Assembly: GCA_965223325.1 (NCBI GenBank)
Contig: CBDCWI010000001.1
Span: forward strand, 1,408,001 to 1,472,000
Direction: 5' to 3'
Length of the DNA stretch: 64,000 nt
Source of the DNA: Candidatus Multivoradales bacterium
Lineage (GTDB): Bacteria; Acidobacteriota; Thermoanaerobaculia; Multivoradales; Multivoraceae
The notes under the pieces were generated by a model, which ran no database searches, was not told where the DNA came from, and saw only the letters and a program-made list of their open reading frames with translations. Positions 20,126-38,375 of the stretch are shown here, one piece after another (positions within the stretch are counted from its first letter, which is position 1; the number at the start of each line of letters is the position of its first letter). The translations under genes were made by a program, and so were the position numbers.

Positions 20126-21808
20126 ATGGCCGAGAAGACATACGACGCGATCGTCGTCGGTTCGGGTGCAACCGGTGGCTGGGCCGCCAAGGTGATGACC
20201 GAAGCCGGCATGGAAGTCCTGATGCTCGAAGCCGGCACTTCGTTTGACGAAACCAAGGACTATCGCGAGCACACCCTGGCGCACGATCTGCCCCTGCGGG
20301 GTCGCCCTGATCCGCGCAACGAGCTACTCCAGCGACGCCCGGTGCAGACCTATTGCTACGCCTGTACCGAGGTCAACGCCGACTTCTTCATCGACGACAT
20401 CGACAACCCGTACACCACCGCTCCCGGCAAACCGTTCAATTGGATCCAGGGCAACAAGGTCGGTGGGCGCTCACTGATGTGGGCACGGCAGTCGTACCGC
20501 ATGAGCGACTACGACTTCAAAGCCGCCAGTCGCGACGGTTTCGGTATGGATTGGCCCATCAGTTACGCCGACCTCGCGCCCTACTACGACCGCGTCGAGC
20601 GCTACATCGGTGTTTCGGGTCAAAAGGAAGGTCTCGCGGTTCTTCCCGACGGCCAGTTCCTGCCACCGATGCCCTACTCCTGTGGGGAGCGGATGCTGAA
20701 AGAAACCATGGAAGGCAAGTTCGGGGTGCCGATGACCATCGGTCGCACCGCGGTGCTCACCGAGTCACGCGACGGGCGCCTGGCTTGCCACTACTGCGGG
20801 CCATGCCACTACGGCTGCCGCACGCGTTCCTACTTCAACTCGCCGCAGACGACACTCAAAGACTGCGCGGCGACCGGCAAATTCACTCTCGTTCCTGAGG
20901 CAGTCGTCACCACGGTCGACATGAACAACGAGAACCTCGCCGAGGGCGTGACCTACTTCGACAAGACCACCGGCGAACGCCATCAGGCCAGGGCCCGGGT
21001 GGTTTCACTTTGTGCCTCGACCCTCGCCTCGACGCGTATTCTGCTCAACTCCGCCGAAGGTGGGCTGGCGAACTCGAGCGACGTGCTCGGCCGCTACGTC
21101 ATGGACCACATCTACGCCACCGGCGTCGGCGGTCGTCTACCGGCACGAGCCGGTGCCAAGCGCGAGAACGCCAGCCGCCCCAACGGCATCTACGTGCCGC
21201 GCTTCCAAAACCTCGACGATCCCAAGACGCACGACAAGAACTTCCTGCGCGGCTACGGCTTTCAGGGCGGCGAAGGCATCACAGCCTGGGAGCACGCGCT
21301 CTCGAAGAAAGGATTCGGAGCTGCGTTCAAAGACTCGATCCCCGGCGACACCGTCTCGCGCATGTCGCTCGGTGGCTTCGGCGAGATCCTGCCGCGTGCC
21401 GACAACCGCGTCGTGCTCGACCCCGAGGTGCGCGACAAGTGGGGTGTTCCGGTCCTGCGCATGGAGTGTTCGCTGGGAAGCAACGAGCTGGCCATGGTCG
21501 ACGCCCTCCTGACTCGCGGCGCCGAGTTTCTGGAAGCTATGGGTTGCACTGACATCTCGGTTCGCAGCGACCCGGCTCCGATGGGCTCAGGCATTCACGA
21601 GGTCGGCACCGCGCGCATGGGCGACGACCCGAAGACTTCTTACCTGAACGGCTTCCAGCAGTCCCATGAGATCAAGAACCTGTTCGTCATGGACGGTGCG
21701 GGCTACGTCTCGATCGGCTGTGTCAACCCAACGCTCACCATGATGTCGCTCGCCCTGCGCTCGAGCGAGTACCTGGTCGAGCAGATGAAGCGCGGCGAAC
21801 TCTCCTGA
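20126..21808 (+). CDS. GMC family FAD oxidoreductase (glycoside/sugar dehydrogenase large subunit)
   Basis: VVGSGATGG, GGRSLMW, WPISYADLAPYYD, CHYCGPCHYGC, IHEVGTARMG, NPTLT. Confidence 0.9.
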   Translation: MAEKTYDAIVVGSGATGGWAAKVMTEAGMEVLMLEAGTSFDETKDYREHTLAHDLPLRGRPDPRNELLQRRPVQTYCYACTEVNADFFIDDIDNPYTTAPGKPFNWIQGNKVGGRSLMWARQSYRMSDYDFKAASRDGFGMDWPISYADLAPYYDRVERYIGVSGQKEGLAVLPDGQFLPPMPYSCGERMLKETMEGKFGVPMTIGRTAVLTESRDGRLACHYCGPCHYGCRTRSYFNSPQTTLKDCAATGKFTLVPEAVVTTVDMNNENLAEGVTYFDKTTGERHQARARVVSLCASTLASTRILLNSAEGGLANSSDVLGRYVMDHIYATGVGGRLPARAGAKRENASRPNGIYVPRFQNLDDPKTHDKNFLRGYGFQGGEGITAWEHALSKKGFGAAFKDSIPGDTVSRMSLGGFGEILPRADNRVVLDPEVRDKWGVPVLRMECSLGSNELAMVDALLTRGAEFLEAMGCTDISVRSDPAPMGSGIHEVGTARMGDDPKTSYLNGFQQSHEIKNLFVMDGAGYVSIGCVNPTLTMMSLALRSSEYLVEQMKRGELS

Positions 21809-21817
21809 GGAGAAACG

Positions 21818-22405
21818 ATGTCTGAAAATAGGAAACAAGAAACTCCCACCCGATCCGCAGCTCTGTCGAGGCGCACCGTGCTCGGCTCGAGCGTCGGCGC
21901 AGCGGCGGCGACCCTTCTGCCGGCCGCGAAAGCAGCTGCCGCAGCCGCACCCAACTGGTCGCCGAAGTTTCTAAGCGCCGATCAGGGTCAAATGCTCGCC
22001 ACCCTCTGCGATCTCATCCTCCCAAGGACCAACACTCCCAGTGCCACCGAAGCAGGCGTTCACGAGTACATCGATGAGGCGCTCTCGGTAGCACCGAGCG
22101 ACGAGCAGCTCGAGTTCCTGGGTGGGCTCGCCTGGGTCGATCGCTTTGCCCAGGAACGTTTCGGCAATCGGTGGAGCGCTTTGGCTGCCCGTCGGCAGAC
22201 GGAGTTGCTGGGCGACATCGCTGACGATCGTGCCCACAACGAGGACACAGAGCTAGGAGCGGCGTTCTTCAACGACCTCAAGCGTCGCACCCTGTTCGGC
22301 TACTTCACCTCCAGGCGCGGCCGAACTGAGGCTCTCGGTCTGCCCGAAACCGTTCGGCGCGAGACGCTCGATGGCTGCAAGCACGGCGCAGGTGGCCACG
22401 GCTGA
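21818..22405 (+). CDS. Gluconate 2-dehydrogenase subunit 3-like Tat-exported partner subunit
   Basis: Tat motif SRRTVLG; ILPRTNTPSA; TLFGYFTS; directly downstream of the GMC gene. Confidence 0.85.
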   Translation: MSENRKQETPTRSAALSRRTVLGSSVGAAAATLLPAAKAAAAAAPNWSPKFLSADQGQMLATLCDLILPRTNTPSATEAGVHEYIDEALSVAPSDEQLEFLGGLAWVDRFAQERFGNRWSALAARRQTELLGDIADDRAHNEDTELGAAFFNDLKRRTLFGYFTSRRGRTEALGLPETVRRETLDGCKHGAGGHG

Positions 22406-23671: not shown

Positions 23672-25630
23672 TCAGATGAGGAGAGAATCGGTCAGGACTT
23701 CGACAGTCGCCGGGCCGTCATAGGCCAGAGCCTCTTCGAGCGCGGCATCGAGCTGCTTGGCCTCGCGCACTTGGATGCCAAAGCCACCGCAGTTTTGGAC
23801 GTAGCGCGCGAAGTCGGGATTGACCAGGCCGGTCTGCCACACGTCGAGCTCGATGGCGCGTTGCTCCTTACTGATCTTGCCGAGCTCCCGGTTGTTGAGC
23901 AGGACGTGCGTGATGTTCATCTCGTGCTTCACAGCCGAGGTGACCTCGGCCAGGTACTGGCCGAACCCGCCGTCGCCAGTTACCGCGATGACGGACCGAT
24001 CGGCGAAGGCCGGGTCGCCAGAACGAGTCGCCGCCCAGGCCCCCATCGCAGCAGGGTAGCCGAAACCAATCGACCCCAGGTAGCCCGACATGATGACGCT
24101 GTGCTCGCGGGCCTCGAAGTAGCGACCGAACGAGTAGGTGTTGTTGCCGACATCGACCGCGATGATCGCGTCGTGCGGTATCACGCGATTCATCGCCGCA
24201 AAGACCGCCGCCGAGTTGACACCGTTTCCCCGATCGTCGGGAAGGCGCCGTTCCTTTTCTTCGCGCCAGAGCTTCCAGCGCTCGGCAACTTCTAAGCGTT
24301 GGTCAGACGCCTGGTGCCTGCCCGCGAGGCGTTCGCGCAAGAGCTCGGCGGTGACGCCGATCTCACCCCACATGGGAACGTCGACTCCGTGGAAGCGGCC
24401 AAGCGCCGTTCGCTCGTAGTCAACCTGAATGGTTGGCTTGTAGGTCGTAATGCCAGTGTGATTCGAGAACGATGCGCCGAACACCAACAAGGCGTCGGAT
24501 TCATTCATGAACCAACTCGCGACGGGCGTTCCGCTACGACCAAGCACCCCGCAGCCAAGCGGGTGGTGATCGGAAATCAACCCCTTGGCCTTGAAGGTTG
24601 TAAGGACCGGGGCACCGAGCTCTTCGGCGAGTGCCCGCACGCCGTCCATCGCAAAGCGTGCTCCATGACCAACGATGATCACTGGGCGCTTCGCGTTCTC
24701 GAGCAACGCGGTCGCCTCGGCGAGGGCCCCGGCCGGCGGCGCAATCTCGGCTGCGGCAACCCTACCTTCCGGGGAACCAGCAGTCGCCTCTGGAGCCGGG
24801 ATCGTCTGGACCTCGTCCGGGAAGACCAGGTGCGACACAGAGCGATCGAGCATGGCGCGCTTACAGGCCAGGTTCATCAGCTCAACCGCGCGGCTGTCGC
24901 GGAGAACGGTGTGCGAAAACGGAGCGACCGACGAAAAGGCCGCCGCCAGATCGACCTCCTGGAAGGCTCCTGGCCCCAGCACCTGCGTGTCCACCTGGCC
25001 CGTCAGGGCGAGAATCGGTGCCCGGTCGACGTGCGCGTCCCACATGCCCGTCAAAAGATTGGTCGCCCCCGGACCGGCGATCGTCAGGCAAGCCGCGGGA
25101 CGACCGGTGAGCTTGCCATAGGCCGAAGCCGCAAAGGCGCCGGCGCCTTCGTGACGAATCGATACGAACTCGAGGTCGCCGGCTTCGTCGGCGCGCCGCA
25201 CGGCGTCGGAGAGGCCCAGATTCGAGTGCCCCACCATTCCGAAGACGTGGGTGACTCCCCAATTGGTCATCGTCTTGACCATCACGTCCGTGGTCGTCTG
25301 CTGATGTGAGCCTTCCTCCTCGACCGCCACATAGATCCCGTCATCGCGAATCTCTATCGGATAGGTCGGCACTCGCTCGTCGAAACCCTCCGGAGCCTGA
25401 CCCGAGATCGGGTTGTAGTCCCAACCATGCCAGGGGCAGCGCAGCCAGCCATTTTCGATCGAACCTTCGCCCAACGGACCGCCCTGATGCGGACAACGGT
25501 TGTCGAGCGCACCGTACTCGCCACCGAAGCGAGTCAGGCAGATTGACGCGTGCCCGGCCACCACCGTCTTGACACGCCCTTCAGGCAGTTCATCGGTGTC
25601 CGCAACGCGATGCCAGATGGTCTTCTTCAT
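23672..25630 (-). CDS. Rieske [2Fe-2S] domain fused to a TPP-dependent enzyme (pyruvate oxidase/ALS-like)
   Basis: CPHQGGPL...CPWHGW; RHEGAGAFAA, AGPGATN, FQEVD, GDGG...NN TPP motif. Confidence 0.9.
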   Translation of the reverse strand: MKKTIWHRVADTDELPEGRVKTVVAGHASICLTRFGGEYGALDNRCPHQGGPLGEGSIENGWLRCPWHGWDYNPISGQAPEGFDERVPTYPIEIRDDGIYVAVEEEGSHQQTTTDVMVKTMTNWGVTHVFGMVGHSNLGLSDAVRRADEAGDLEFVSIRHEGAGAFAASAYGKLTGRPAACLTIAGPGATNLLTGMWDAHVDRAPILALTGQVDTQVLGPGAFQEVDLAAAFSSVAPFSHTVLRDSRAVELMNLACKRAMLDRSVSHLVFPDEVQTIPAPEATAGSPEGRVAAAEIAPPAGALAEATALLENAKRPVIIVGHGARFAMDGVRALAEELGAPVLTTFKAKGLISDHHPLGCGVLGRSGTPVASWFMNESDALLVFGASFSNHTGITTYKPTIQVDYERTALGRFHGVDVPMWGEIGVTAELLRERLAGRHQASDQRLEVAERWKLWREEKERRLPDDRGNGVNSAAVFAAMNRVIPHDAIIAVDVGNNTYSFGRYFEAREHSVIMSGYLGSIGFGYPAAMGAWAATRSGDPAFADRSVIAVTGDGGFGQYLAEVTSAVKHEMNITHVLLNNRELGKISKEQRAIELDVWQTGLVNPDFARYVQNCGGFGIQVREAKQLDAALEEALAYDGPATVEVLTDSLLI

Positions 25631-25681
25631 GGGTATCAGGCCCTCTTGAGGGGCGGTCGACGTTGATTTCTGGAGGCGGAG

Positions 25682-26932
25682 TCAGTGCTCGGCCTGAAAG
25701 TGTCTCTCGACCAGCGAACGCGAGTACTCGACCACGCCGTCGACACTCGAGAAGTTACACAACGCGCCGGCGACATAAACGCCCGCAATCCCCTGCGCGC
25801 TCTCGAGCCAATCGTAGAAGCCAGCTGCATCGGCACCTGGTGGAAGGTGGGGAAAGAAGTGCACCCGCCTCTGGGCGACAAAGACAGGGTTTTCGACTCC
25901 GAGAGCCAGCAGATCCTCTCGCAGGATCGACTTCACCTCGGCGTCAGACTTGCCGTCTACAACCGTATAGACCATGAGCATCTCACGCTCCTTGTCCGGG
26001 CGCACGATGACATGAACCCGTCCACGACGCTTGGACTCGAAGTTCTGCGGAAAGACCGCGGACCGCCCCTTGTAGCCCGGCGCCTCAACCAGACAGGTCA
26101 TGTACTCGACGGTCTGGACCCGCGCGAGGTGTGCCCGAGCGGTTTCGTCGTAGTGTGTTGGAACGACCCCGCCCGTCGGCGGAAACGTGATGACGACGGC
26201 ATCGAACAGCGAGCTTCCGCTAGCAGTTCGGACCCGTGGCGGTGAACCGGGAGCGCTCTCGATCGCCAGGACCTGCTGGTCGCAGCGCACATCGAAGTCA
26301 GAGGCGAGACGACGGAAAAAACTACCAAAACCACCCTCGAGGTAGCGCACCTCGCCGGTCGCAAAGCAACCATGACGGGTCTCCTTGTCCATGTACTTGA
26401 GCACATAGGCCGTCGGCGTCTCATCGAAGTAGCCGTAGCCGAAGCCGGTCACGAAGGGCTCGAGGAGTCGCCTAAGGTCCGGCAAGTCGTACTTCTTGAC
26501 GAACTCAGAAAAGGACAACCAGAGATCTGGATGTAAGCCCGCAAAGCCCGGATCGCTGAGGCTGTTGTAGCCAGTGTCGAGATCGATCGCCGCAAGTCGC
26601 TCTTCGATTGGCCCGAGGATCGCCGGACCTGCAAAGGGAGGCTCGGAGTGCCCGTCGACGATCGGGGGAAAACCGCCAGTGCGTTCACCGAGAGCTCCTC
26701 CCGCTTCGTCGAGCAGCTGACGAAGCGATTGAAACGAATCGACCGCGAAGACTGCACCGAGGTCGTAACACTCGCCTCCAATCTCGACGTCGTAACAAAG
26801 ACCACCGGGCTCGCTAGCCGACTCCAGAACGACGACGTCTTCGTAGCCGGCCTTCTTCAAGTACCACGCGCAAGAAAGTCCTGCCGCACCTGCTCCGAGA
26901 ATCCCTACGCGCAATCGCTCGTCCTCCCCCAC
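25682..26932 (-). CDS. FAD-dependent oxidoreductase resembling polyunsaturated fatty acid isomerase (PAI)
   Basis: GAGAAG Rossmann fold; GFGYGYFDETPTAYVLKY, FFPH, and C-terminal VEYSRSLVERHF resembling Cutibacterium acnes PAI (comparison from memory). Confidence 0.7.
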   Translation of the reverse strand: MGEDERLRVGILGAGAAGLSCAWYLKKAGYEDVVVLESASEPGGLCYDVEIGGECYDLGAVFAVDSFQSLRQLLDEAGGALGERTGGFPPIVDGHSEPPFAGPAILGPIEERLAAIDLDTGYNSLSDPGFAGLHPDLWLSFSEFVKKYDLPDLRRLLEPFVTGFGYGYFDETPTAYVLKYMDKETRHGCFATGEVRYLEGGFGSFFRRLASDFDVRCDQQVLAIESAPGSPPRVRTASGSSLFDAVVITFPPTGGVVPTHYDETARAHLARVQTVEYMTCLVEAPGYKGRSAVFPQNFESKRRGRVHVIVRPDKEREMLMVYTVVDGKSDAEVKSILREDLLALGVENPVFVAQRRVHFFPHLPPGADAAGFYDWLESAQGIAGVYVAGALCNFSSVDGVVEYSRSLVERHFQAEH

Positions 26933-26954
26933 TCACTCGCGCGCTCCATCGTCG

Positions 26955-28589
26955 TCAAGGCCGGCCAACTCCCCCATAGCGAACCCCGGCCAGAGCAGCG
27001 ATCTCGCTCTTCCAGGAGGTCAGGTCGCGCACCTCGAAGTCACTGAGCTGGGAATGCCCACAGGCACGCGCCAGAACCTGCATGAGTTCCACCGACGCGC
27101 GCAGGAAACGATCCAGCCGTTCGGCCGACGGGTCAATGACCAGACGCTCGCGCAGGTGGGGCTTCTGAGTGGCGATTCCCACCGGGCAGTTGTTCGAGTG
27201 ACAAGCGCGCATGGCGACGCAGCCGATCGCCTGCATTGCAGAATTCGAGACTGCCACCGCGTCGGCGCCCAGCGCCAAGGCTTTGACAAAGTCGGGTGCC
27301 ACACGCAAGCCGCCGGTCACAACCAGGGTGATGTCTGCGGCGTTCGATCGGTCGAAATGGGCACGGGCACGCGCCAGAGCTGCGATGGTCGGCACGGAAA
27401 TGTGATCGCGAAACAAGAGAGGCGCCGCACCCGTACCACCGCCGCGGCCATCGAGGATCACATAGTCGGCGCTCGCTTCGAGCGCGAAGTCGAGGTCGTC
27501 TTCGATGTGCTGGGCCGAGAGTTTGAAGCCGACCGGGATGCCGCCCGTTGCTTCTCGCACCTCGTCGGCCACGGCGCGAAAATCCGCCGGCGAGTGTAGG
27601 TCAGGGAAAGTTGCCGGGCTGATCGCAGCCTGGCCCGCTTCGAGGCCTCTCACCTGGGCGATTTCCTCGGAGACCTTGGTCCCGGGGAGGTGCCCACCGG
27701 TTCCGGTCTTGGCACCTTGCCCGCCCTTGAAATGGAAGGCCTGGCAGCGCTTGACCTTGTCGAGTGACCAGCCAAAACGCGCCGAAGCGAGCTCATAGAA
27801 GTAGCGGCTGTTGGCGGTCTGTTCGTCAGGCAACATGCCACCCTCCCCCGAACAGATGCCAGTGCCAGCCAGTTCGGCGCCCTTTGCCAGGGCGACTTTG
27901 GCTTCGCGTGACAGCGCGCCGAAACTCATGTCTGAGACGAACAGGGGAATCTCGAGCCGGAGTGGCTTGTTCGCCCGCGGGCCGATCACCACCCCGGTCT
28001 CGACCGGCGCATCGTCGAGAAGCGGTTGCCTGGCAAGCTGGGCGGTCACGATCTGGATGTCGTCCCAACCCGGCAGCTGGGAGCGGGGCACTCCCATCGC
28101 ATCGGTCGGCCCGTGGTGCCCTAGCCTGGAGAGTCCCTCGCGTGCGAGCCGCTGAATGAGGGCGTTGTGCGGCTCATCTGAAATGCCGTGCGGGTCCTGG
28201 TAGGCCCCAAGGTACTCATCGCGGCTCCAGGGTTGCGGGTGAAGACGCCCCCAGGCAGCGACTTCGTCCTCGTCGACCTCGACGCGGCCGTCCTCGACGA
28301 ACACCGAGAAGCGCTCGAGGGACTCTTCGTTGTTGTACTCACTGACCCCGGTGTCGTAGCGATAGTCCCAGCCGTGCACACCACAGATGAGGTTCTTGCC
28401 GTCGATGTGACCATCGGCGAGCAGCGCACCCCGGTGGTGGCAGCGACCGTAGAGCACCGAGACCTGGTCGTCACCCTCACCACTGGGATCAGCAAACCGG
28501 GTAACCACCAGGTCGACGCCGGCCACCAATGCATGCTTCGGTACGAGCCGTTCGAGCTCGCTGAGTTGTGCAACGACAATTCGATTCAT
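26955..28589 (-). CDS. Rieske domain fused to a glutamate synthase FMN-binding domain with [3Fe-4S] motif
   Basis: CHHRGALL...CGVHGW; SDMSFGALS, SGEGG, KGGQGAKTGTGGHLPG, DGRGGGTGAAP, CVAMRACHSNNCPVG. Confidence 0.9.
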   Translation of the reverse strand: MNRIVVAQLSELERLVPKHALVAGVDLVVTRFADPSGEGDDQVSVLYGRCHHRGALLADGHIDGKNLICGVHGWDYRYDTGVSEYNNEESLERFSVFVEDGRVEVDEDEVAAWGRLHPQPWSRDEYLGAYQDPHGISDEPHNALIQRLAREGLSRLGHHGPTDAMGVPRSQLPGWDDIQIVTAQLARQPLLDDAPVETGVVIGPRANKPLRLEIPLFVSDMSFGALSREAKVALAKGAELAGTGICSGEGGMLPDEQTANSRYFYELASARFGWSLDKVKRCQAFHFKGGQGAKTGTGGHLPGTKVSEEIAQVRGLEAGQAAISPATFPDLHSPADFRAVADEVREATGGIPVGFKLSAQHIEDDLDFALEASADYVILDGRGGGTGAAPLLFRDHISVPTIAALARARAHFDRSNAADITLVVTGGLRVAPDFVKALALGADAVAVSNSAMQAIGCVAMRACHSNNCPVGIATQKPHLRERLVIDPSAERLDRFLRASVELMQVLARACGHSQLSDFEVRDLTSWKSEIAALAGVRYGGVGRP

Positions 28590-28929
28590 GGCTCGCAGAT
28601 TACACGCTGCCGAGCGCGTGTACCTGGACCTTCGCTCTGTTCGCCGACGCCGCCGGCATCGACTGGGCGGTGCTCCGCCGCTCTTTCGGGCTGTCCGCTC
28701 GCCTCCTCTTGGTCTCCACACCGCTCCAGATCGACCTTGGCACACTGCTGGCCTTGGATCTCCTGCCAGGCCCAGACTGGGGGAAGGCGCCCTGCTGGCG
28801 AGTGTGCTCGCAACGGGCGAAGCGGCGCGCGGACACCTTCTTCTAAATCATTCTTCATCGCCTCGCCGCGCACCCGGTGATCGGCTGGATAACATCCGGC
28901 CATCCAGTAACCGGAGAAGGGATCGATCA

Positions 28930-29247
28930 ATGGCCCAGGCATTGACCCAGACTTCACAGGCGGAGTCGGTCACCCCCTGGCATCTCACCGCAGAACTTCT
29001 TGTCAACGCTGCGACGCTGTACGTCGCCGTCGGCCTCCTCTTTGCCATCCTCTACGCGTCCTTCGGTGCTCCGAGGCTCGACCCAGCGGCAGAAAAAGGC
29101 ACCTGGGGCTTCCGCCTGCTGAGCATTCCAGGCACCGTCGCCCTCTGGCCGCTCCTCGCCTGGCGGTGGCTGCGACGAGAGGGACCACCGATCGAGGACA
29201 ATGCCCACCGGCGCGCGGCACGATCGGGCGGAGGATCCAACTCGTGA
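28930..29247 (+). CDS. Small two-TM membrane protein
   Basis: GGAGAAGG upstream; two hydrophobic helices; FRLLSIPG...WP; GTGA overlap with the next ORF. Confidence 0.7.
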   Translation: MAQALTQTSQAESVTPWHLTAELLVNAATLYVAVGLLFAILYASFGAPRLDPAAEKGTWGFRLLSIPGTVALWPLLAWRWLRREGPPIEDNAHRRAARSGGGSNS

Positions 29248-29411
29248 TTGCCCGCCTACGTCGTCGCCATCGTTTGATCTGGCTCGTTCTGCTGGTTCTG
29301 GTACCTGTCATGCTGGTGATTGCCCTCAGTCTGCGGCCGCCGGCGCCGGAACTAGAAACCCTTCCAGCTGCTCTCGAGCAGCTCGCAACAGAAACGAGCG
29401 AGGCGCCATGA
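29244..29411 (+). CDS. Small single-TM protein (55 aa)
   Basis: GGAGG RBS; translationally coupled at both ends (GTGA and ATGA overlaps); LRRRHRLIW followed by a TM helix. Confidence 0.65.
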   Translation: MIARLRRRHRLIWLVLLVLVPVMLVIALSLRPPAPELETLPAALEQLATETSEAP

Positions 29412-31204
29412 GCGCCTCCTACCGAGCCGTCCAGTGGACGCCGCACAAGAAGCGCTACGACCTGGTGTTGCTTGCGGCCGTTCTTAGCTACCTGGTGATT
29501 TTCGTCGCGGTCGGTATGCTCAGCCACCCGCAGACGACGATCGAAACCCAGCTCATTCGTGCCCTGGGGACATGCAGCTTCTTGATGCTGTACGTCATCC
29601 TACTGATCGGCCCGCTGGCGCGACTCGACCCTCGATTCCTGCCCCTGCTCTACAACCGGAGGCACTTCGGCGTCGCCATGTTCTTGGTGGCGGCGGCGCA
29701 CGGCGTGTTTTCGATCGTGCAGTTCCATGCCCTCGGCGACATCAACCCGCTCTTCAGCGTTCTGGTTTCGGGCACCGAGAGCATGCCGTCAATCGTCTGG
29801 CTGCCTTTTCAACCCTTCGGCTTCCTGGCTCTGGTGATTCTGTTCGTCATGGCCGCCACCAGCCACGACTTCTGGCTGGTCAACCTCACGGCGCCGGTGT
29901 GGAAGGCGCTACACATGTCGGTCTACCTGGCGTGGGTACTGCTGGTTCTCCATGTCGCCCTGGGTGGTCTGCAAAGCGAGCGCAGTGTCTTCTACGCCTT
30001 CCTCGTTGCGGCTGGGGTGGCGCTGGTCACCGGGCTCCACGTCGTGGCCGCCCTGCGAGAGCGCTCCGGGGCCGCGACCGCGAATCGTTCGCCCGACGAT
30101 CAGGGCTTCGTGGCCGTCGCCAAGGTGTCCGAGATTGCCGAGGACCGAGCCATCACCGTCGAGCTCTCGGGCGAGCGTGTGGCGGTCTTTCGCTACAACG
30201 GCAAGATCAGCGCGATCTCCAACGTCTGCCGCCATCAGAACGGCCCGCTCGGCGAAGGCAAGATTGTCGACGGCTGCATCACGTGCCCCTGGCACGGCTG
30301 GCAGTATCGTCCGGAAGACGGCGCATCGCCGCCGCCATTTGACGAGAGCGTCCCCACCTTTCGTGTGCGCCTCCTGGGCGACCAGGTTCTCGCTCACCCG
30401 ACTCCACTGCCTGCGGGCACCCACGTCGAACCAGCGACCATCGAAGGAGAAGCGCTCCAAGGGCCGCCAGGCGAAGCCTTCTTCATCGGCTGGAGCGCCG
30501 ACATACCCAGCGACATCGGCCGCTTCACCCGCAGCGCGGTCTTGGCTATCACGACCCTCGGCGTGGCGCTGGCGGTGATCCTCCCTCTTCTCCAGAACCG
30601 CTTCGACCCCGGCTCTTTCGACTTTGGAAACACCACAGTCGTCGAGGGTGAGCTGGTCACTGAGCCCTACCCAGCTCTGCACACCGATGACCTCGACTCG
30701 ACAAGTGATCCCCTCCTGGTCGCGACCGGCAAGCGTGGCGCCGAAGGACTCCTCGCCGCCCTCGAGAGCGGCAGCTGGGTAGAAGTCGAGGGAACGAAGA
30801 TCGACGCCCCGGCGGCCACCATGATCGAGATCACCAGAGCAGCTCCGGCCGACTCTCCCCGGACGGTCCAAAGCGCGAACTCGATCGACTTCGGCGAGTT
30901 CGAGCTCGCCGGCGAGATCGTCGACAGCAAGTGCTTCCTCGGCGTCATGAAACCCGGGCGCTCCCGAGGCCACCGTGCCTGCGCCATCCGTTGTATATCC
31001 GGCGGAGTCCCCCCAGCCCTTCTCGTCACCTCCAAAGACAAGACCCTGCTCCTTCTGCTGGCCGACCAGAACGGCAAGCGTGTCGCTGCCGCCACCGCGG
31101 CGCCACTCGCCGCGCAACCGTTGACCATCCGTGGTCGAGTCGGCCTGCGTAACGGCCACCTGACCCTCGAATCAGACCCTCTAACCTGGGCGCTCCTCGA
31201 CTGA
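29408..31204 (+). CDS. Ferric-reductase-like (MsrQ-type) heme-b membrane domain + Rieske domain + C-terminal exported Cys/His domain
   Basis: YNRRHFGV, AAHG, MAATSHDFW, WKALHMSVY, VLHV; CRHQNGPL...CPWHGW; TM; GEIVDSKCFLGVMKPG...HRACAIRCISGG. Confidence 0.8.
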   Translation: MSASYRAVQWTPHKKRYDLVLLAAVLSYLVIFVAVGMLSHPQTTIETQLIRALGTCSFLMLYVILLIGPLARLDPRFLPLLYNRRHFGVAMFLVAAAHGVFSIVQFHALGDINPLFSVLVSGTESMPSIVWLPFQPFGFLALVILFVMAATSHDFWLVNLTAPVWKALHMSVYLAWVLLVLHVALGGLQSERSVFYAFLVAAGVALVTGLHVVAALRERSGAATANRSPDDQGFVAVAKVSEIAEDRAITVELSGERVAVFRYNGKISAISNVCRHQNGPLGEGKIVDGCITCPWHGWQYRPEDGASPPPFDESVPTFRVRLLGDQVLAHPTPLPAGTHVEPATIEGEALQGPPGEAFFIGWSADIPSDIGRFTRSAVLAITTLGVALAVILPLLQNRFDPGSFDFGNTTVVEGELVTEPYPALHTDDLDSTSDPLLVATGKRGAEGLLAALESGSWVEVEGTKIDAPAATMIEITRAAPADSPRTVQSANSIDFGEFELAGEIVDSKCFLGVMKPGRSRGHRACAIRCISGGVPPALLVTSKDKTLLLLLADQNGKRVAAATAAPLAAQPLTIRGRVGLRNGHLTLESDPLTWALLD

Positions 31205-31250: not shown

Positions 31251-32138
31251 TCAGTCGAGAGGCGCCAGAAGCTCGGGTGCGGTGACCAGCTCGCGGACAC
31301 CGTGGGACTTCGTCTCATGGAAGACGTTGCCAGCGGCGGCCCACGCGTGCAGAGAACCGATGTCAAGACGGGCGCACTCGGGACGCACGCTCCATGTCAC
31401 TTTCATCGGTGAGCAATTCACCTGGTCATAGCTTGGCCCAGTCGTTGAGCCTCGAAAAACAACGGGCGTGCCGGTGTCTGACGGGATCTCCTTGGCCTGG
31501 TGCAGCCCAGAGCGCACGGTGCCACCGTAGGCCATCTCGCGAAAGTCCAGCGCCTCGCTGTCGTTGACCACCAGAAAAACCTGCGCCTCGACGCGGAGGA
31601 GGGGGTCACTGCAGGTTTCCGTAAGGCACGAGCCCAGACCCTCGCCCGGGGAAACGTCACAGGACGTGTGAACCCAATGCACTTCGATCGTGTCTCCAGG
31701 CACAGCACCTTTGAAGGCGCCCTCGCCGGCAAACGGATCGCGGAGCTCTTCGTCGGTCAGGGCATCGCGGTCGTTGCAGGCATAGCCGCCATGCTCACCT
31801 GGGCCAGCGAAAACTGCAAAACCCGGCCCCTTGTGCTCGGCGTTGGTATGCGTGTGAATGTTGCACAGGTTCATCTCGGCAGCCGGCGGTGCCAACTCGA
31901 AGGCCATGGTGTTCAGACCGGTCGGGCTCGAAATGTCGCGTGGTGTCTGCGGTCCCATGTCGACACAGAGGTTTGTTGCGGCGTCGGCCTGTCCCTCGCC
32001 GGCCATTGGGGTAGCCGCGTCTTCCGTCGAGGTGGTTGATTCGCCCTCGCCGGAACATGCAGCGATAACGAGGACAGAGAACAGCACGATCACCGCAGTC
32101 GTTGCGGCCGGTGAGACAGAGTGGATCTTCTTGGACAC
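31251..32138 (-). CDS. Delta-class carbonic anhydrase, lipoprotein
   Basis: IAAC lipobox; GPQTPRDI, LCNIHTHTNAEHK, IEVHWVHTSC, GSTTGPSY, HGVRELVT. Confidence 0.8.
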   Translation of the reverse strand: MSKKIHSVSPAATTAVIVLFSVLVIAACSGEGESTTSTEDAATPMAGEGQADAATNLCVDMGPQTPRDISSPTGLNTMAFELAPPAAEMNLCNIHTHTNAEHKGPGFAVFAGPGEHGGYACNDRDALTDEELRDPFAGEGAFKGAVPGDTIEVHWVHTSCDVSPGEGLGSCLTETCSDPLLRVEAQVFLVVNDSEALDFREMAYGGTVRSGLHQAKEIPSDTGTPVVFRGSTTGPSYDQVNCSPMKVTWSVRPECARLDIGSLHAWAAAGNVFHETKSHGVRELVTAPELLAPLD

Positions 32139-32715: not shown

Positions 32716-34860
32716 TCAGGCTTCGGGCAGTCGGGGTAGTCGCTCGAACCCCAGTTGGTCCTCGGTTTCGAGGACGAGAAGCGCAAGCCGCCCGAACAGG
32801 CGCTGGCGCGTTTCAGCGCTCAGCTCGAGAGTCGCCTCGAGTGCCTGGGTTATCGCGCCGACGTCCTCCTTGAGGACTGCACCCGGTGAGCACGCATCAG
32901 CCATCGAGATGCCATCCTGGGCGTGCTCTAACGGATAGGGAACGTCCCGGAGCAAGCCGCGGAACAAGATGATCTTGTTGTATGCACGCGCGCAGCTTTC
33001 AAGCAGGTGTTGAGCCACCAACTCGCTCTGCTTCTCCTGGAATCGTGGCAAGAGCACAGAGAGCACGCAGTACTCCTCACAAAGGCTGGGAATGAATTCA
33101 TGGGCGGCTTCGAGAGCCGCCGCTGCGCGGTAGAGATCTCTGCCATCGGAGCGAAGCGACAGAGCTAGAACTAGACGCGACGCGGCAAGTTCTTCGCTGG
33201 GTAGCAACTTGGGAGCGAGCTCTTCGAGACGCTTCAGCCCCGCGGCCCGATCGGCGAGCATCGTCGAGGCGGCAGCGTCTTCGATGCCGAAGTCCTTGGC
33301 GGAGACCCGGAGCCTGGCGTTGTGCAACGCTTCGATCTGCGCGTCTCGTAGCAGTCGGGTTTGCACCTCGACCCATTCTGCGAGGTTCTTGGCGTAGCCT
33401 TCGCGGCGAGAAAAGAGCTCGCTCCTTATCTCTGCCAGCCGCGCTCGAAGGCTCGCTGTGACCTCCTCTCTGCCGTCCAGTTCCGGCAGGGCCATTCTTC
33501 GCGACTGCGAGCGCTCGCTCTGCAAAAGGGCCAAACCGGCCTCGAACTCCTGCCGCCATGCCTGGTCCCGGTCGACCACTGAAGATAGCGGGCGAAGGGC
33601 CTCGGCACGCACCTCTTCGCCGAGGACGGCGTGAAAGAAGTCGAGCGAAGTGGCCCGGCAGAGGGCATCAAAGTCCCGGAAGAGAACGTTTGCTCCCAGA
33701 TCCGACGAGAAGACACCCACCTCCCCTTCGCGCAGCGCGCTGGCGATTCGATCTGCGTCAGCTGGATGCGTTGCGAAGAGCTCGGTTTCCGCCTCGTCGA
33801 CATGGAGATCGATCTCGCGCAGCGTTTCTTCCGCCAGGCTTACCCGTCGCCAGGCAACGAGTTTCGGAAGATTGTCGACAAGCTCGCCCTCACGCCACGA
33901 GGTCTCGAGATCATTGAGCGACCACTGAAAGGCAACCCCTAGCCGTGAGAGCTCACGACAGGTCGACTCGAAAGTCGACGAGCCCACCAACCGAGCTTCG
34001 TGGCGATCGGCGTCGTACTCCATCTGGCGCAACATGAAACCACTGATCAGATTGCCGATCATCATCAGGCCCCAAAGCACCCGACGGGTGAGCCAGACGA
34101 AGAAGCGAGCGATGTGCACCGAGATGACGATTAGGATCAAGAAGCCTTCGCGCGCAGCCGTCTCGAGCGCCGCGTCCCAGGAGTCACGCTCGTAGACCAC
34201 CCTCATGAACCAGCGGTTGATCGAACGGATCACATAGGTGAGGCGCATCCCCGCCTTCTGGGAAAAGTGGCCGAATTCATGCGCCAGCACACCGGCAAGC
34301 TGCTCGAGGGTGAGGCCGGCAACAAGGGGCAGACCCAGCGTCAGGACGAGATCACTCGAGACCAGGCTGGCGACCCCGCGGCGAAAGCTCGCCGAGGCGT
34401 TGATCTGTGAATCGACGTCGATGCGCGACGGTGCGGGAGCACCTACCGCAGCGCAGACGCGCTCTACAAAAGCAAAGAGCAGCGGCTCTTCTCGAGGGTC
34501 GAGCGAGCGGGGATTCGCCGTTTCACGCCGCGGCGCGAACACGGGCTTGATCATGAACAGGACCAGCACAATCCCGACGAGCAGCGGCCCGATGTAGAGG
34601 AAGGCCCCCACCTGCACCGAACTCGAGGACCCGAGAACCGCGTGGTTCTGGGTTGCGTGCACGAAGACGGCGTAGGAGACGAGGCAGATCAGCCCGACGT
34701 AGACGAGCGGCAGGAGCACCATCCCCAAGGCGACCACTGCGAGGCCCAGCCGGTAGACCCAGGGTTCTTTGACGGGCTCGATAGCGCCGGTGAAGGACCC
34801 GAGAATCGCGTCGCGAAGCGCCGGGCCATACTCGACTTGTGTTGACCGTTCCGAGGTCAC
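32716..34860 (-). CDS. M48 (HtpX/Ste24-like) membrane Zn metallopeptidase with long C-terminal extension
   Basis: N-terminal TMs, INASA, VLAHEFGH, RQMEYDAD, THP..DRI. Confidence 0.85.
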   Translation of the reverse strand: MTSERSTQVEYGPALRDAILGSFTGAIEPVKEPWVYRLGLAVVALGMVLLPLVYVGLICLVSYAVFVHATQNHAVLGSSSSVQVGAFLYIGPLLVGIVLVLFMIKPVFAPRRETANPRSLDPREEPLLFAFVERVCAAVGAPAPSRIDVDSQINASASFRRGVASLVSSDLVLTLGLPLVAGLTLEQLAGVLAHEFGHFSQKAGMRLTYVIRSINRWFMRVVYERDSWDAALETAAREGFLILIVISVHIARFFVWLTRRVLWGLMMIGNLISGFMLRQMEYDADRHEARLVGSSTFESTCRELSRLGVAFQWSLNDLETSWREGELVDNLPKLVAWRRVSLAEETLREIDLHVDEAETELFATHPADADRIASALREGEVGVFSSDLGANVLFRDFDALCRATSLDFFHAVLGEEVRAEALRPLSSVVDRDQAWRQEFEAGLALLQSERSQSRRMALPELDGREEVTASLRARLAEIRSELFSRREGYAKNLAEWVEVQTRLLRDAQIEALHNARLRVSAKDFGIEDAAASTMLADRAAGLKRLEELAPKLLPSEELAASRLVLALSLRSDGRDLYRAAAALEAAHEFIPSLCEEYCVLSVLLPRFQEKQSELVAQHLLESCARAYNKIILFRGLLRDVPYPLEHAQDGISMADACSPGAVLKEDVGAITQALEATLELSAETRQRLFGRLALLVLETEDQLGFERLPRLPEA

Positions 34861-35095
34861 CAACCCCCCTGACTCATGAGCCCATCGGGCCCACTCTAGA
34901 GTTGCAATTCTCACTGATTCGCAGAGCTCGGTCCAACCGCGAGGCTCATCAGGACGCCAGCCTCTGGCCCGGCACAAGGTGCCGCGGCCTTTGAACCCAC
35001 CGAGGCCCTGGGCGCTCGAGCACTAATCACCGAGTGCCGAGCGACCTGGAGAAGGGCGGCCCTCCGCGGCGCAGCAATCGATCCAGTCAACCGCC

Positions 35096-35995: not shown

Positions 35996-36563
35996 TTCAA
36001 ACTCCATAAAGAGAAATGAGGGTGAACCAAGAGCAGCACTGATCACGATGGCCAGGTGTCTTGGTAGAGGGGCCACCAGTGCAACGCGTGTGCCATTATC
36101 AATGTATGAATATTTCATCGCGACTTCCAACAGTTCTTGAATCGTGTTCGTCCCATTTAAACAACGCCGTCGTCCTTCCAGCGAGACAGCCAGGTTCACC
36201 TAGAGACTCTTAAAACCTCCAAAGCTATTTTCCGAACCGACCGCCAACCACTCCTTCATCGCAGCCTCAGAACGCGGAACGAACGACGAGGAAGTACGAG
36301 GCGAGAGCGCCGAGACTCCGGGTCGGCAGAGTCGGAGCTTGATCAACGAACCCCTCGCTAGCGGATCGGCATCCACGGCCTGGTTCATGGTGGCCACCGT
36401 CTCGGTGCACCAGGGTCTTCTACTCGCCAGGATCTTGCTTGATCAGAACCCCTCCAGCCGACCACGGGGTTGCTGGATTGCGAACCATCGGGCGCGCCAA
36501 CGCGTACGAGTGCGAGAAGGAGTGACCTGAAGAGTCGGGGTCGCTTTGAGCAATTCGGTCATA

Positions 36564-37454
36564 ATGGACGTTCAACCTATGCCTACCCAACCGAATCCGA
36601 AGAGCGCTCCGACGGGCGACGCCGCGCCCTATCCGAGAAGCCTCGGCGCGCTACCCGATGGCGTGTTGCGCGCGGGCCGCTTCGAGGCGCGTTTCGCACG
36701 CACCGGGGAAGAGCTCGATCGCCTCCTACGACTGCGCTTTGAAGTGTTCAACCTCGAACTCGACGAAGGTCTCGAAAGCTCCTGGGCAACGGCGCGCGAC
36801 GAGGACCCCTTCGACGCGCAGTGCCACCACCTCCTGGTCGAAGACACCTCAACCCTGAGAATTCTCGGTACCTACCGCCTGCAGACCGCTCAGATGGCGG
36901 AGGCTGGAATGGGTTTCTACTCGGCGGCGGAGTACGACCTCGGCGGAATCCCCTCCTCAGTGATGGACTCGTCCGTCGAAATCGGGCGGGCCTGCATCGA
37001 TCGGCGCCACCGCAATCGTCAGGTTCTCTTCCTCCTATGGCGCGGGCTGGCGCGCTACATGACCTGGAACGACAAGCGCTACTTCTTCGGCTGCTCTTCT
37101 CTGACCAGCCAGGACCCGCGCGAGGGCTGGCAGTTGTTCGAGCAACTCAAGGAACGCGGAACGCTCCATCCGTCGATCCTGCTCGATGTGAACCCTGAGT
37201 TCGCCTGCAAGAAACCCGAGTCGGGCGGGTATGGCGAAACGGTCGAGATCCCACAGCTGTTTAAAACCTACCTGCGCTACGGCGCACGCGTCTGCAGCGC
37301 TCCGGCACTCGATCGTGAGTTCAAGACCATCGACTACTTGATGCTCTTCGACCGCGAGGCAGCTTCGGCGCGCACGGTGCAGATCTTCTTCGACCAATCG
37401 ACCGCGCCCGGCTTCGGGCGCGACCCCAGGAGCGGTGGGGCCGCCGTCACCTGA
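36564..37454 (+). CDS. olsB: OlsB-like GNAT N-acyltransferase (ornithine/amino-acid lipid synthesis)
   Basis: LRFEVFNLE, DEDPFDAQCHHLLV, GTYRL, FYSAAEYDL, EIGRACI, FGCSS, PQLFKTYLRYGA...PALDREF. Confidence 0.8.
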   Translation: MDVQPMPTQPNPKSAPTGDAAPYPRSLGALPDGVLRAGRFEARFARTGEELDRLLRLRFEVFNLELDEGLESSWATARDEDPFDAQCHHLLVEDTSTLRILGTYRLQTAQMAEAGMGFYSAAEYDLGGIPSSVMDSSVEIGRACIDRRHRNRQVLFLLWRGLARYMTWNDKRYFFGCSSLTSQDPREGWQLFEQLKERGTLHPSILLDVNPEFACKKPESGGYGETVEIPQLFKTYLRYGARVCSAPALDREFKTIDYLMLFDREAASARTVQIFFDQSTAPGFGRDPRSGGAAVT

Positions 37455-37463
37455 CCTCTTCCG

Positions 37464-38375
37464 ATGGTCGACAGCCCTCTCTCACCCCGACTCGATCCAT
37501 CGGTTCCGGTTCCGCCGGGCCACGAGTTCGCACCCGGCGCAGACGACGTGATGGCGTCGCCGCACCGACTGTCGTGGCTACGCGTGCCGCATCGGATCGT
37601 GATCGCCGCCAGCGTATCGATCGCATCGGCGGCGATCCTGACGCTATGCCGACCAATCGGCGCCATTTCGAGACCAGCACTATTGGCGGTGCGGCGCTTC
37701 GTCTACCGAAGCTGGGGTAACACCCTTTGTTGGGTCCTCGGAGTTCGGGTCGAGACCGTCGGGCAACCTCCCACACGACCCTTCCTCCTGGTATCGAATC
37801 ACCTCTCCTATCTCGACATCCCGCTCCTGGCCTCGATTCGGCCCGCTCGCTACGTTGCCAAGGTGGAAATCAGTTCCTGGCCGTTGGTTGGCTGGATGTG
37901 CCGAAGCGTTGACACGGTCTTCGTCGACCGTTCCTCCCGACGTGACGTCGTGCGCGTTGCCCAGGAAATGCGCCGCGCACTCGACGAAGGCGACGGAGTC
38001 GTCTTGTTCGCCGAAGGAACCAGCACACGCGGAGACGCCGTCGCACCGTTTCAGGCACCGCTTCTGGCATCTGCCAGTCGCACCGGTGAACCGGTGCACG
38101 CGGTTGCAGTGCGCTACGAAGTCGCAGACGATCAAGTGCCAGCCGACCGCTCGGTGTCGTGGTGGGGCGGCATGCCCTTCGGCAGTCACATCATCCAGCT
38201 CCTGCGCCTGCCGCGGATCGATGCCCGGGTGACCTACGCACCCAACCCCGCCACCGACCAGGATCGCAAACAGCTGGCGCGCGCCCTCCAGGCACAGGTC
38301 GAGGAGCTCTTCGAGCCGATGACCGATCAACCAACGTTCGTCGCGGCGGAGCACGATCATCCCGACTCCGTCTGA
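37464..38375 (+). CDS. PlsC/OlsA-like lysophospholipid (lyso-ornithine lipid) acyltransferase
   Basis: NHLSYLD, FVDR, FAEGTST, WWGGM; follows the olsB-like gene. Confidence 0.85.
   Translation: MVDSPLSPRLDPSVPVPPGHEFAPGADDVMASPHRLSWLRVPHRIVIAASVSIASAAILTLCRPIGAISRPALLAVRRFVYRSWGNTLCWVLGVRVETVGQPPTRPFLLVSNHLSYLDIPLLASIRPARYVAKVEISSWPLVGWMCRSVDTVFVDRSSRRDVVRVAQEMRRALDEGDGVVLFAEGTSTRGDAVAPFQAPLLASASRTGEPVHAVAVRYEVADDQVPADRSVSWWGGMPFGSHIIQLLRLPRIDARVTYAPNPATDQDRKQLARALQAQVEELFEPMTDQPTFVAAEHDHPDSV

Follow-up and report, generated by a model that had tools for sequence, protein, structure and literature searches.

What are three complete Rieske motifs, on three otherwise different proteins, doing side by side in one bacterial genome? 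The question is raised by a locus at positions 23672-31204 of a 64,000-nucleotide stretch of DNA (the window) from Candidatus Multivoradales bacterium (Acidobacteriota; assembly GCA_965223325.1, contig CBDCWI010000001.1, positions 1,408,001 to 1,472,000). A preliminary description had proposed that the proteins form a dedicated electron-transfer chain. We find that the locus sets back to back two redox modules, each uncharacterised, widespread and independent of the other: a pair of soluble enzymes and a membrane cassette. The window holds a compact, complete copy into which one foreign gene has been inserted. The system is real, conserved and built from known kinds of parts, and a mechanism for it is plausible. 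In the reading that we favour, which has in our judgement not quite an even chance of being right, the Rieske domains of the soluble enzymes feed the cassette, which exports electrons to its periplasmic domain.

The locus carries seven genes arranged as two divergent arms, and its parts are as follows (aa, amino acids).

23672..25630, minus strand: Rieske-ThDP (thiamine diphosphate) enzyme, 652 aa; Pfam Rieske plus TPP_enzyme_N, _M and _C
25682..26932, minus strand: amine-oxidase-family FAD (flavin adenine dinucleotide) oxidoreductase, 416 aa; Pfam Amino_oxidase, E 2.4e-19
26955..28589, minus strand: Rieske-GltS-like FMN (flavin mononucleotide) enzyme, 544 aa, GltS being glutamate synthase; Pfam Rieske plus Glu_synthase
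28590..28929, no strand: divergent intergenic region between the arms, 340 bp, from the sequence read
28930..29247, plus strand: sm1, two-helix membrane protein, 105 aa, first gene of the cassette; tblastn and conserved motif
29244..29411, plus strand: sm2, single-helix protein, 55 aa; overlaps with both neighbours
29408..31204, plus strand: membrane protein FRD-Rieske-Cdom (FRD, ferric-reductase domain), 598 aa; Pfam Ferric_reduct plus Rieske, AlphaFold model

Much of the preliminary description holds at this level. All three proteins score above the Pfam cut-off for Rieske and carry the motifs claimed for them, and the gap between the arms, given as ~340 bp, measures 340 bp (28590-28929). 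The minus arm reads FMN gene, FAD gene, ThDP gene, with gaps of 22 and 51 nt. The plus arm reads sm1, sm2, membrane gene, and the translational coupling claimed for its two small membrane genes is seen in the overlaps GTGA (sm1/sm2) and ATGA (sm2/membrane gene) that chain the arm together. Two features were missing from the description: the FAD gene between the soluble enzymes, and the seventh helix and ~200-residue extracytoplasmic domain of the membrane protein.

The genome (6.69 Mb, 2 contigs, 98.2% complete), for which the listed sequencing runs are four of DNA from a single study and none of RNA, has only 5 Pfam Rieske matches, and 3 of the 5 fall inside one 5-kb stretch of the locus. The remaining two are a ring-hydroxylating oxygenase alpha subunit and a 266-residue, bc-type-looking protein with CPHLGC..CPCH. 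FRD-Rieske-Cdom is the sole Ferric_reduct protein of the genome, and all parts of the soluble pair, the cassette and a nearby lipid block are single-copy and span 17.4 kb. The 340-bp divergent region contains no sigma-70-like site. The corresponding regions at six other loci have no motif in common with it. Terminator-like sites are no commoner than in shuffles (7 versus 5.2 ± 2.0), and as for the six corresponding regions, no k-mer is common to more than one of those six.

The FAD gene, which separates the FMN gene from the ThDP gene, is an insertion specific to the lineage. It has no homologue at any of 160 related loci; among 5.8 billion clusters its protein has 29 relatives at E<=1e-5, itself included, the best 45% identical, and representative genomes yield 1 weak relative. 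Its GC content at third codon positions is 0.70, compared with 0.75-0.77 in the neighbouring genes. A conserved partner role for this gene is ruled out by the 0/160 loci and the single weak relative.

Distribution and linkage of the two modules

We compared two sets of loci, 80 fetched with the ThDP enzyme (many of them cut by contig ends) and 80 fetched with the membrane protein. At the ThDP-enzyme loci the FMN gene is found in 38/80, mostly adjacent and directly upstream; sm1 is found in 7/80, the membrane gene in 6/80 and the FAD gene in 0/80. At the cassette loci the ThDP enzyme is present in 15/80, the FMN enzyme in 16/80 and either soluble gene in 19/80. The divergent layout of the window is also that of five further Acidobacteriota genomes and of one from Planctomycetota (L167, L168, L010/L083, L012, L014, L097), and soluble genes adjoin the cassette in Pseudomonadota, Bacteroidota, Acidobacteriota, Planctomycetota and Krumholzibacteriota.

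Co-occurrence was measured in 300 genomes sampled evenly across the phylum of the window. The ThDP enzyme occurs in 20 of these genomes, the FMN enzyme in 28 (19 with the Rieske part) and the cassette in 25. Sixteen genomes have both soluble enzymes (Fisher p 9e-16), 10 have the ThDP enzyme together with the cassette where 1.7 are expected (Fisher p 2.7e-7), and 8/300 have all three; kinship inflates such tests, related genomes not being independent. Counted by genus, ThDP enzyme and cassette remain associated (7/15 genera versus 19/185, p 1.5e-4). The co-occurrence and clustering of the three architectures, which had been put forward as the check on the chain, are thus far above chance both at the loci and in the genome sample.

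A shared origin of the Rieske domains had likewise been put forward for testing. That the domains of the ThDP enzyme and the membrane protein are visibly similar, as had been remarked, is borne out by an identity of 43% over 91 residues, and the domain of the FMN enzyme is 27-28% identical to each of the other two. In Rieske trees of 84 and 82 domains, the more careful of which leaves out P0008 and P0034 (nested in the ThDP-enzyme group and likely fragments), each architecture forms its own group. The membrane domains group 28/28 at 99/99 and the FMN domains 20/20 at 100/100. Between the groups the trees give no firm branching order, and a very long branch leads to the FMN domains. A special common origin of the ThDP-enzyme and membrane Rieske domains received a p-AU (approximately unbiased test) of 0.425. 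Apparent triple fusions of FMN, Rieske and ThDP parts (P0025, P0032 and P0090; Glu_synthase + Rieske + TPP_N) were rejected: they contain long Arg/Pro-rich stretches that look out of frame, and we therefore read them as frameshifted metagenome calls.

The histories of the soluble enzymes are related without being the same. Across the 38 loci their mean pairwise distances are 0.31 and 0.33, the distances correlate (r 0.47; Mantel, 0 of 2000), and the window falls together with the same trio of Acidobacteriota bins in both trees (100/99 and 99). The congruence test, from which L008 was left out as a 33%-identical paralogue, nonetheless rejected congruent histories: each tree rejects the other (p-AU 3.8e-30 and 4.7e-88), and 10/34 splits are common to both.

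Several of these results weigh against a chain in which the soluble enzymes supply the cassette. The membrane gene accompanies the ThDP enzyme at just the 6/80 loci given above, the modules being mostly apart. Neither soluble enzyme is present in 15/25 cassette genomes of the phylum sample, so the cassette must have other donors. The FMN enzyme is absent from 4/20 genomes with the ThDP enzyme, and the ThDP enzyme from 12/28 genomes with the FMN enzyme. G196, G236 and G282 have the three genes scattered; two genomes of the window's own family have all three megabases apart, and clustering like that of the window was seen, among the sampled genomes, in G054 and G184 only. To these points are added the mutual rejection of the soluble-enzyme trees and a Rieske tree that does not single out the ThDP-enzyme and membrane domains as sisters. 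Finally, DUF5996, the most frequent neighbour of the soluble pair elsewhere (33/80 loci), was not found in this genome by the neighbour queries, and part of the pair's usual context is therefore missing here.

The proposal of a dedicated chain thus stands in one part and falls in another. The architectures are conserved, co-occur and cluster; they do not make up one obligate chain, given the modules mostly apart, the 15/25 cassette genomes without soluble enzymes, the dispersed genes and the incongruent trees. Soluble pair and membrane cassette are modules conserved separately, and an electron link between them through the Rieske domains is likely but facultative, with each module also working without the other.

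Architecture of the soluble enzymes and the cassette

The ThDP enzyme has an N-terminal Rieske domain (about nt 25328-25615, Pfam E 1.6e-17, motif CPH..CPWH). Among solved structures E. coli PoxB is closest to it (3eya; E 1.9e-58, alignment over PoxB 3-527), and the enzyme retains the equivalent of the catalytic Glu50 and the GDG..NN ThDP motif (GDGG..NN in the alignment to PoxB). The C-terminus aligns to PoxB residue 527-532 of 572. The enzyme thus stops at the end of the PoxB catalytic core, and the lipid-binding tail of PoxB is missing. NCBIfam equivalog models score it well below their cut-offs (NF006377, pyruvate oxidase, 385.4 bits versus 742; NF006591, 276 versus 792). All of its best solved relatives are FAD-containing members of the family; by this analogy the enzyme probably binds FAD. 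Its electron acceptor is presumably a protein rather than a quinone or O2. At least 574 relatives (60-78% identity) occur in representative genomes of many phyla, and the family comprises at least 7999 90%-identity protein clusters at E<=1e-100. Like it, the FMN enzyme belongs to a very large family whose conservation is unusually high. Isolates that carry the ThDP enzyme include Planctomycetes bacterium Pla163 and Acidobacteria bacterium Mor1, and Saltatorellus ferox Poly30 carries the cassette.

The FMN enzyme starts at 28589 (MNRIV): homologues align from residue 1, and a longer upstream open reading frame is unsupported. Its Rieske domain is N-terminal (about nt 28344-28583, Pfam E 1.5e-11, motif CHH..CGVH) and is followed by a Glu_synthase match (PF01645, E 2.8e-88). 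It aligns to GltS large chains in the PDB with E 1e-39 to 5e-35 over the synthase domain only, and scores 142 bits with NF008730 against a cut-off of 1047. QGAK..GG.LPG and an Arg 14 residues further on are retained; we take these to be substrate and catalytic residues of the GltS active site. A His replaces the Gln that follows GG in the QGAKPGEGGQ of GltS. The [3Fe-4S] site attributed to this domain is present in the alignment as C-x5-C-x4-C-P. The absence of a glutamine amidotransferase domain was also correctly noted, since Pfam finds no Ntn (N-terminal nucleophile) amidotransferase, central or beta-helix domain in the 544 residues.

The Rieske head of the soluble enzymes is a modular electron port. 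We treat it as such because variants with CDGSH and Fer4_19 domains occur. In GltS-like FMN enzymes of the same phylum at L164:1049-2572 (-) and L165:814-2622 (-), two CDGSH domains replace the Rieske head. Long forms of the ThDP enzyme (873-884 residues; L166:1457-4111 (-) and P0137) read Fer4_19 + 2xCDGSH + Rieske + ThDP, a chain of four Fe-S sites before the ThDP catalytic core. Close kin of the ThDP enzyme's head are also found as three or two tandem Rieske domains (P0001, 362 aa; P0124; P0055), and stand-alone Rieske proteins are 46-48% identical to it.

The full pattern of the cassette is present in the window: sm1, a small protein with MI.PLR.RHR, an FRD-Rieske protein and an OB-like (oligonucleotide/oligosaccharide-binding) domain with D.KC..G.M.P..H..CA..C. 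By tblastn, sm1 is present in 73/80 cassette loci, with the conserved motif GFRLL..PG..ALWPLL..RW; GGAGAAGGG stands upstream of its ATG. The 55-residue sm2 has an N-terminal MI.PLR.RHR followed by a helix in common with 15 p173 proteins and lacks their ~110-residue outer domain. It is a shortened remnant of p173, a cassette protein of ~173 aa.

The membrane protein truly starts at 29408 and was modelled by AlphaFold from an 89-row alignment with a pLDDT (predicted local distance difference test) of 91.6 and a pTM (predicted template-modelling score) of 0.89. The modelled order is six helices, the Rieske domain, a seventh helix and a beta-rich domain. The Ferric_reduct match (PF01794) covers about nt 29567-29947 (E 2.6e-9, 37.6 bits versus a cut-off of 28) and the Rieske match about nt 30110-30325 (E 9.6e-19, motif CRH..CPWH). 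His86 and His98 of helix 3, His169 and His182 of helix 5, and the four Rieske ligands are invariant in 44/44 homologues, and the paired His residues match the two-haem pattern of the ferric-reductase superfamily. The NCBIfam MsrQ model (NF003831) gives 34.7 bits versus a cut-off of 130, and no molybdopterin oxidoreductase (MsrP) was found in the scanned section of the window (9-44.6 kb) or among the conserved neighbours. Representative genomes from many phyla contain at least 547 loci of the membrane protein. In two genomes that belong to one genus the cassette's FRD-Rieske gene has a single in-frame TGA (G163:C9:58633-59643 and G284:C6:47781-48791), which may reflect gene inactivation, a mistake in sequencing or codon recoding.

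From the Lys/Arg residues before helix 1, a cytoplasmic Rieske domain and a periplasmic last domain are expected. In 61/80 loci the last domain is encoded by a gene of its own, and in about 11/80 it is fused, as here; the fusion puts it on the opposite side of the membrane from the Rieske domain. In the Rieske domain, Foldseek finds a superposition on BphA3 (2e4q_C; E 1.2e-5, TM (template-modelling) score on target 0.84). Likeness to oxygenase ferredoxins and to NirD-type models suggests that the Rieske domains are of the low-potential type.

The periplasmic tandem OB-like domain (nt 30593-31201) was predicted on its own with a pLDDT of 92.3 as two OB-like barrels, and D506, K508, C509, M514, H522, C525 and C529 are invariant in 54/54 sequences. 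Fold searches returned generic OB-fold matches only, with no functional relative among them. The best Foldseek match is a two-OB single-stranded-DNA-binding protein (2ihf; E 1.4e-4, TM 0.26), the best VIA match has Z 7.2 in the wide search and 7.7 in the second look, and the second half aligns to potempin A with Z 7.4 (root-mean-square deviation 2.5, 75 aligned). A protein atlas search with the domain gave unnamed clusters only.

Complex prediction for sm1 with residues 1-400 of the membrane protein scored 0.58, compared with 0.00 for the best of 3 controls; the runs agree in >=77% of contacts and the partner pLDDT is >=70. The pass mark used is reached by 116/157 solved complexes and by 2/215 mismatched pairs. 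Just 18 of the 157 solved complexes pass at <=0.60, along with both passing mismatches, so a score in this range gives weak support to a complex of the two proteins.

Possible paths of the electrons

How might the two modules work together? In the export reading that we favour, the first module is a PoxB-like ThDP enzyme and a GltS-type FMN/[3Fe-4S] enzyme, each with an N-terminal Rieske electron port that would substitute for the membrane/quinone tail of PoxB and for the reductase subunit of GltS. The substrates oxidised would be a pyruvate-like 2-oxo acid and a glutamate-like amino acid, and single electrons would pass from the Rieske domains of the two enzymes to that of the cassette. With its cytoplasmic Rieske domain, two-haem MsrQ-like domain and periplasmic Cys3/His/Met site, the cassette looks built for electron transfer across the inner membrane. 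Electrons would travel via the haems to the periplasmic domain and from there to an envelope acceptor, which may be tied to amino-lipid remodelling. We infer the cofactor loading, the substrates, the direct Rieske-to-Rieske transfer, the direction of flow and the final acceptor from the architecture and from known relatives.

The outward direction is favoured because of redox potentials and the behaviour of known ferric-reductase-domain proteins. Electrons from pyruvate or glutamate would run downhill to a Rieske ferredoxin, and the reverse reactions would need a much stronger reductant than quinol. To our knowledge, all characterised members of the superfamily (NOX, FRE, STEAP and MsrQ) export electrons. 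A stronger version of this reading, possible but in our view doubtful, is an export line independent of the respiratory chain, in which Rieske-ported oxidation proceeds without NAD(P)H or quinone and delivers electrons to a periplasmic Cys/His/Met OB-fold site that serves the envelope in amino-lipid modification, metal reduction or oxidative repair.

The tightest association in the data is that of the soluble pair (38/80 loci, usually adjacent; the FMN enzyme in 16/20 genomes with the ThDP enzyme), and the majority of pairs occur without the cassette. The pair might therefore form a closed loop in which the pyruvate-oxidising ThDP enzyme reduces the GltS-like enzyme, which then aminates 2-oxoglutarate, the cassette being an unrelated neighbour. 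The retained QGAK..GG.LPG, Arg and 3Fe-4S cysteines of the FMN domain are compatible with such a glutamate synthase, driven by pyruvate and needing neither NAD(P)H nor ferredoxin. However, each enzyme is found without the other (12/28 and 4/20 genomes), their trees are incongruent, and loci of the Solirubrobacterales type have a flavodoxin-like FMN_red protein beside the ThDP enzyme instead (FMN_red in 11/80 loci). The loop also leaves the excess co-occurrence and clustering with the cassette unexplained, and we consider it unlikely.

It is also conceivable, though to us quite unlikely, that the modules have no direct interplay, each serving general redox partners, and that proximity reflects shared regulation (e.g. 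a stress regulon) or chance rearrangement. Dispersal of the genes in the close relatives G196 and G236 fits this explanation, as do the unrelated orphan FAD gene inside the operon, the four unrelated genes between cassette and lipid block, the divergent promoter regions without a common motif, and neighbours elsewhere that include ECF (extracytoplasmic function) sigma factors, glutathione peroxidase and ergothioneine genes. It does not account for co-occurrence well over expectation, for the same divergent layout in two phyla or for soluble genes adjoining the cassette in five.

The electron direction in ferric-reductase-domain proteins is set by the potentials of their partners, and the cassette might in principle run inward, taking electrons from quinol or a periplasmic donor and passing them over the haems to its Rieske domain, so as to supply the soluble enzymes for reductive chemistry. 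Periplasmic GMC and Gluconate_2-dh3 genes without a cytochrome subunit are indeed found near the cassette, in 8/80 loci and at 20126-22405 of the window. Inward flow nevertheless runs counter to the electron export by characterised superfamily members and would require a reductant much stronger than quinol; we regard it as improbable.

Lastly, a highly improbable link to ergothioneine, in which the pair would dispose of the pathway's pyruvate, ammonia or glutamate or supply its reducing step, is suggested by EgtB and EgtD beside the pair in 5/80 loci (three phyla) and by EgtD with a class-II amidotransferase adjoining the triple locus in G184, but EgtD is present in 14/20 ThDP-enzyme genomes versus 138/300 overall (p 0.02), four ThDP-enzyme genomes of the window's family have no EgtD match, and EgtB and EgtD lie far off in this genome, on different contigs. 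The EgtD tally over the 300 genomes, which includes the EgtD-positive G152, G049 and G024, none of them with the ThDP enzyme, rules out an obligatory dependence. At L167 (G184:C364, 236-3087 (-)), which has the triple-Rieske layout of the window, the EgtD and class-II glutamine amidotransferase (EgtC-like) genes lie directly downstream of the ThDP enzyme.

Neighbouring genes and known systems

Downstream of the cassette in the window lies the lipid block, identified by Pfam:

36546-37454, plus strand: OlsB-like N-acyltransferase (Acetyltransf_5)
37464-38375, plus strand: OlsA-like O-acyltransferase (PlsC-type)
38431-41043, plus strand: alpha/beta-hydrolase + VTT (DedA) protein

Each of the three genes is single-copy or the best copy in the genome. 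At least one of their homologues lies <=8 kb from the cassette in 28/80 loci from at least 8 phyla. The acyltransferase tandem directly follows the cassette in many loci; here it is 5.3 kb away, with the four unrelated genes in between. Frequent followers of the cassette elsewhere are OlsB-like, OlsA-like, hydrolase + VTT, DinB_2, TANGO2 and YHS genes.

Around the soluble pair, DUF5996 and the FMN_red proteins and EgtB/EgtD already mentioned are joined by Na/H exchangers (22/80 loci), ECF sigma factors (9/80) and alpha carbonic anhydrase (5/80). The neighbour queries also failed to find the FMN_red partner, DinB_2, TANGO2, p146 or the neighbour-type Na/H exchanger in this genome, and likewise the ECF sigma factor and alpha carbonic anhydrase that neighbour the pair elsewhere. 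A delta-class carbonic anhydrase (31251-32138 (-); Pfam CA_like, E 6.6e-66) with a lipoprotein-like signal abuts the cassette, convergent to the membrane gene, and alpha-class enzymes directly follow the ThDP enzyme in 5 Nitrospirota loci; two carbonic anhydrase classes thus adjoin the system in two phyla.

On the other side of the locus, the GMC oxidoreductase at 20126-22405 (+) is accompanied by a Gluconate_2-dh3 small subunit with a Tat (twin-arginine translocation) signal, and the GMC genes that occur <=8 kb from the cassette in 8/80 loci are often found with MIP and GH63 genes. A 700-residue protein at 15853-17955 (+) joins an LtrA (low-temperature requirement A) membrane domain to an inward-rectifier-type K channel (Ion_trans_2 + IRK_C). 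An unusually long M48-family peptidase (753 residues; 32716-34977 (-)) has a large C-terminal extension without a Pfam match.

We found no functional study or pathway for these architectures in the full-text literature searched, supplementary figures not being covered. Rieske appears in a 2013 survey, as a domain model only, among the fusion partners of ferric-reductase domains (PMC3591440), and a 2018 survey records CDGSH together with Glu_synthase, Fer4_19 and Rieske_2 (PMC5859297). The Rieske passages of PMC8097209 contain nothing on fusions with GltS. In a term search of a 2026 amino-lipid review (PMC12971839), the terms DedA, ferric reductase, TANGO2 and DinB are absent and no redox cassette is mentioned. 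The phylum co-occurrence counts, the head variants with CDGSH and Fer4_19, the incongruence between the soluble-enzyme histories, the negative ergothioneine test and the rejection of the apparent triple fusions as frameshift artefacts are new here.

The modules are very common (at least 574 and at least 547 species-level genomes in >10 phyla, including sponge and clam symbionts), and about two thirds of the residues of the enzymes are the same from one phylum to another, yet the modules are functionally uncharacterised. If the export reading is true, the system would be a new coupling of central carbon and nitrogen metabolites to envelope redox chemistry through a transmembrane haem wire, and its Rieske ports a new class of electron partner for PoxB-like and GltS-like enzymes. 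The copy in the window, with single-copy parts within 17.4 kb and two cassette genes fused so that the membrane topology is fixed, is convenient for cloning.

Each part has a recognisable counterpart among known systems. The ThDP enzyme shares its three-domain ThDP fold with PoxB (PDB 3EY9/3EYA), Lactiplantibacillus plantarum pyruvate oxidase and Corynebacterium glutamicum PQO (9EV3-9EV6); unlike E. coli PoxB, it adds an N-terminal Rieske domain and lacks the C-terminal lipid-activated tail. The FMN enzyme has the FMN-site motif and three [3Fe-4S] cysteines in common with the glutamate synthase large subunit (7MFM, 1EA0, 1LLW/1OFD), but has a Rieske head in place of the amidotransferase, central and beta-helix domains and no adjoining GltD partner. 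The Rieske domains have the fold and ligand motif of the oxygenase Rieske ferredoxins (BphA3, CarAc, NDO, T4MO; TM on target 0.8-0.87 for the domain of the membrane protein), whereas here they are fused to the enzymes that they would serve and no Rieske oxygenase is involved. The acyltransferase tandem of the lipid block corresponds to that of the OlsB/OlsA ornithine-lipid (acyloxyacyl amino-lipid) pathway. The membrane protein shares the six-helix Ferric_reduct domain and two His pairs with MsrQ (YedZ), NOX, FRE and STEAP, and the cassette shares predicted inner-membrane electron transfer with MsrPQ and the ferric-reductase superfamily. It differs from MsrQ in its fused cytoplasmic Rieske port and in its partner: a Cys/His/Met domain of tandem OB-like build takes the place of the molybdoenzyme MsrP.

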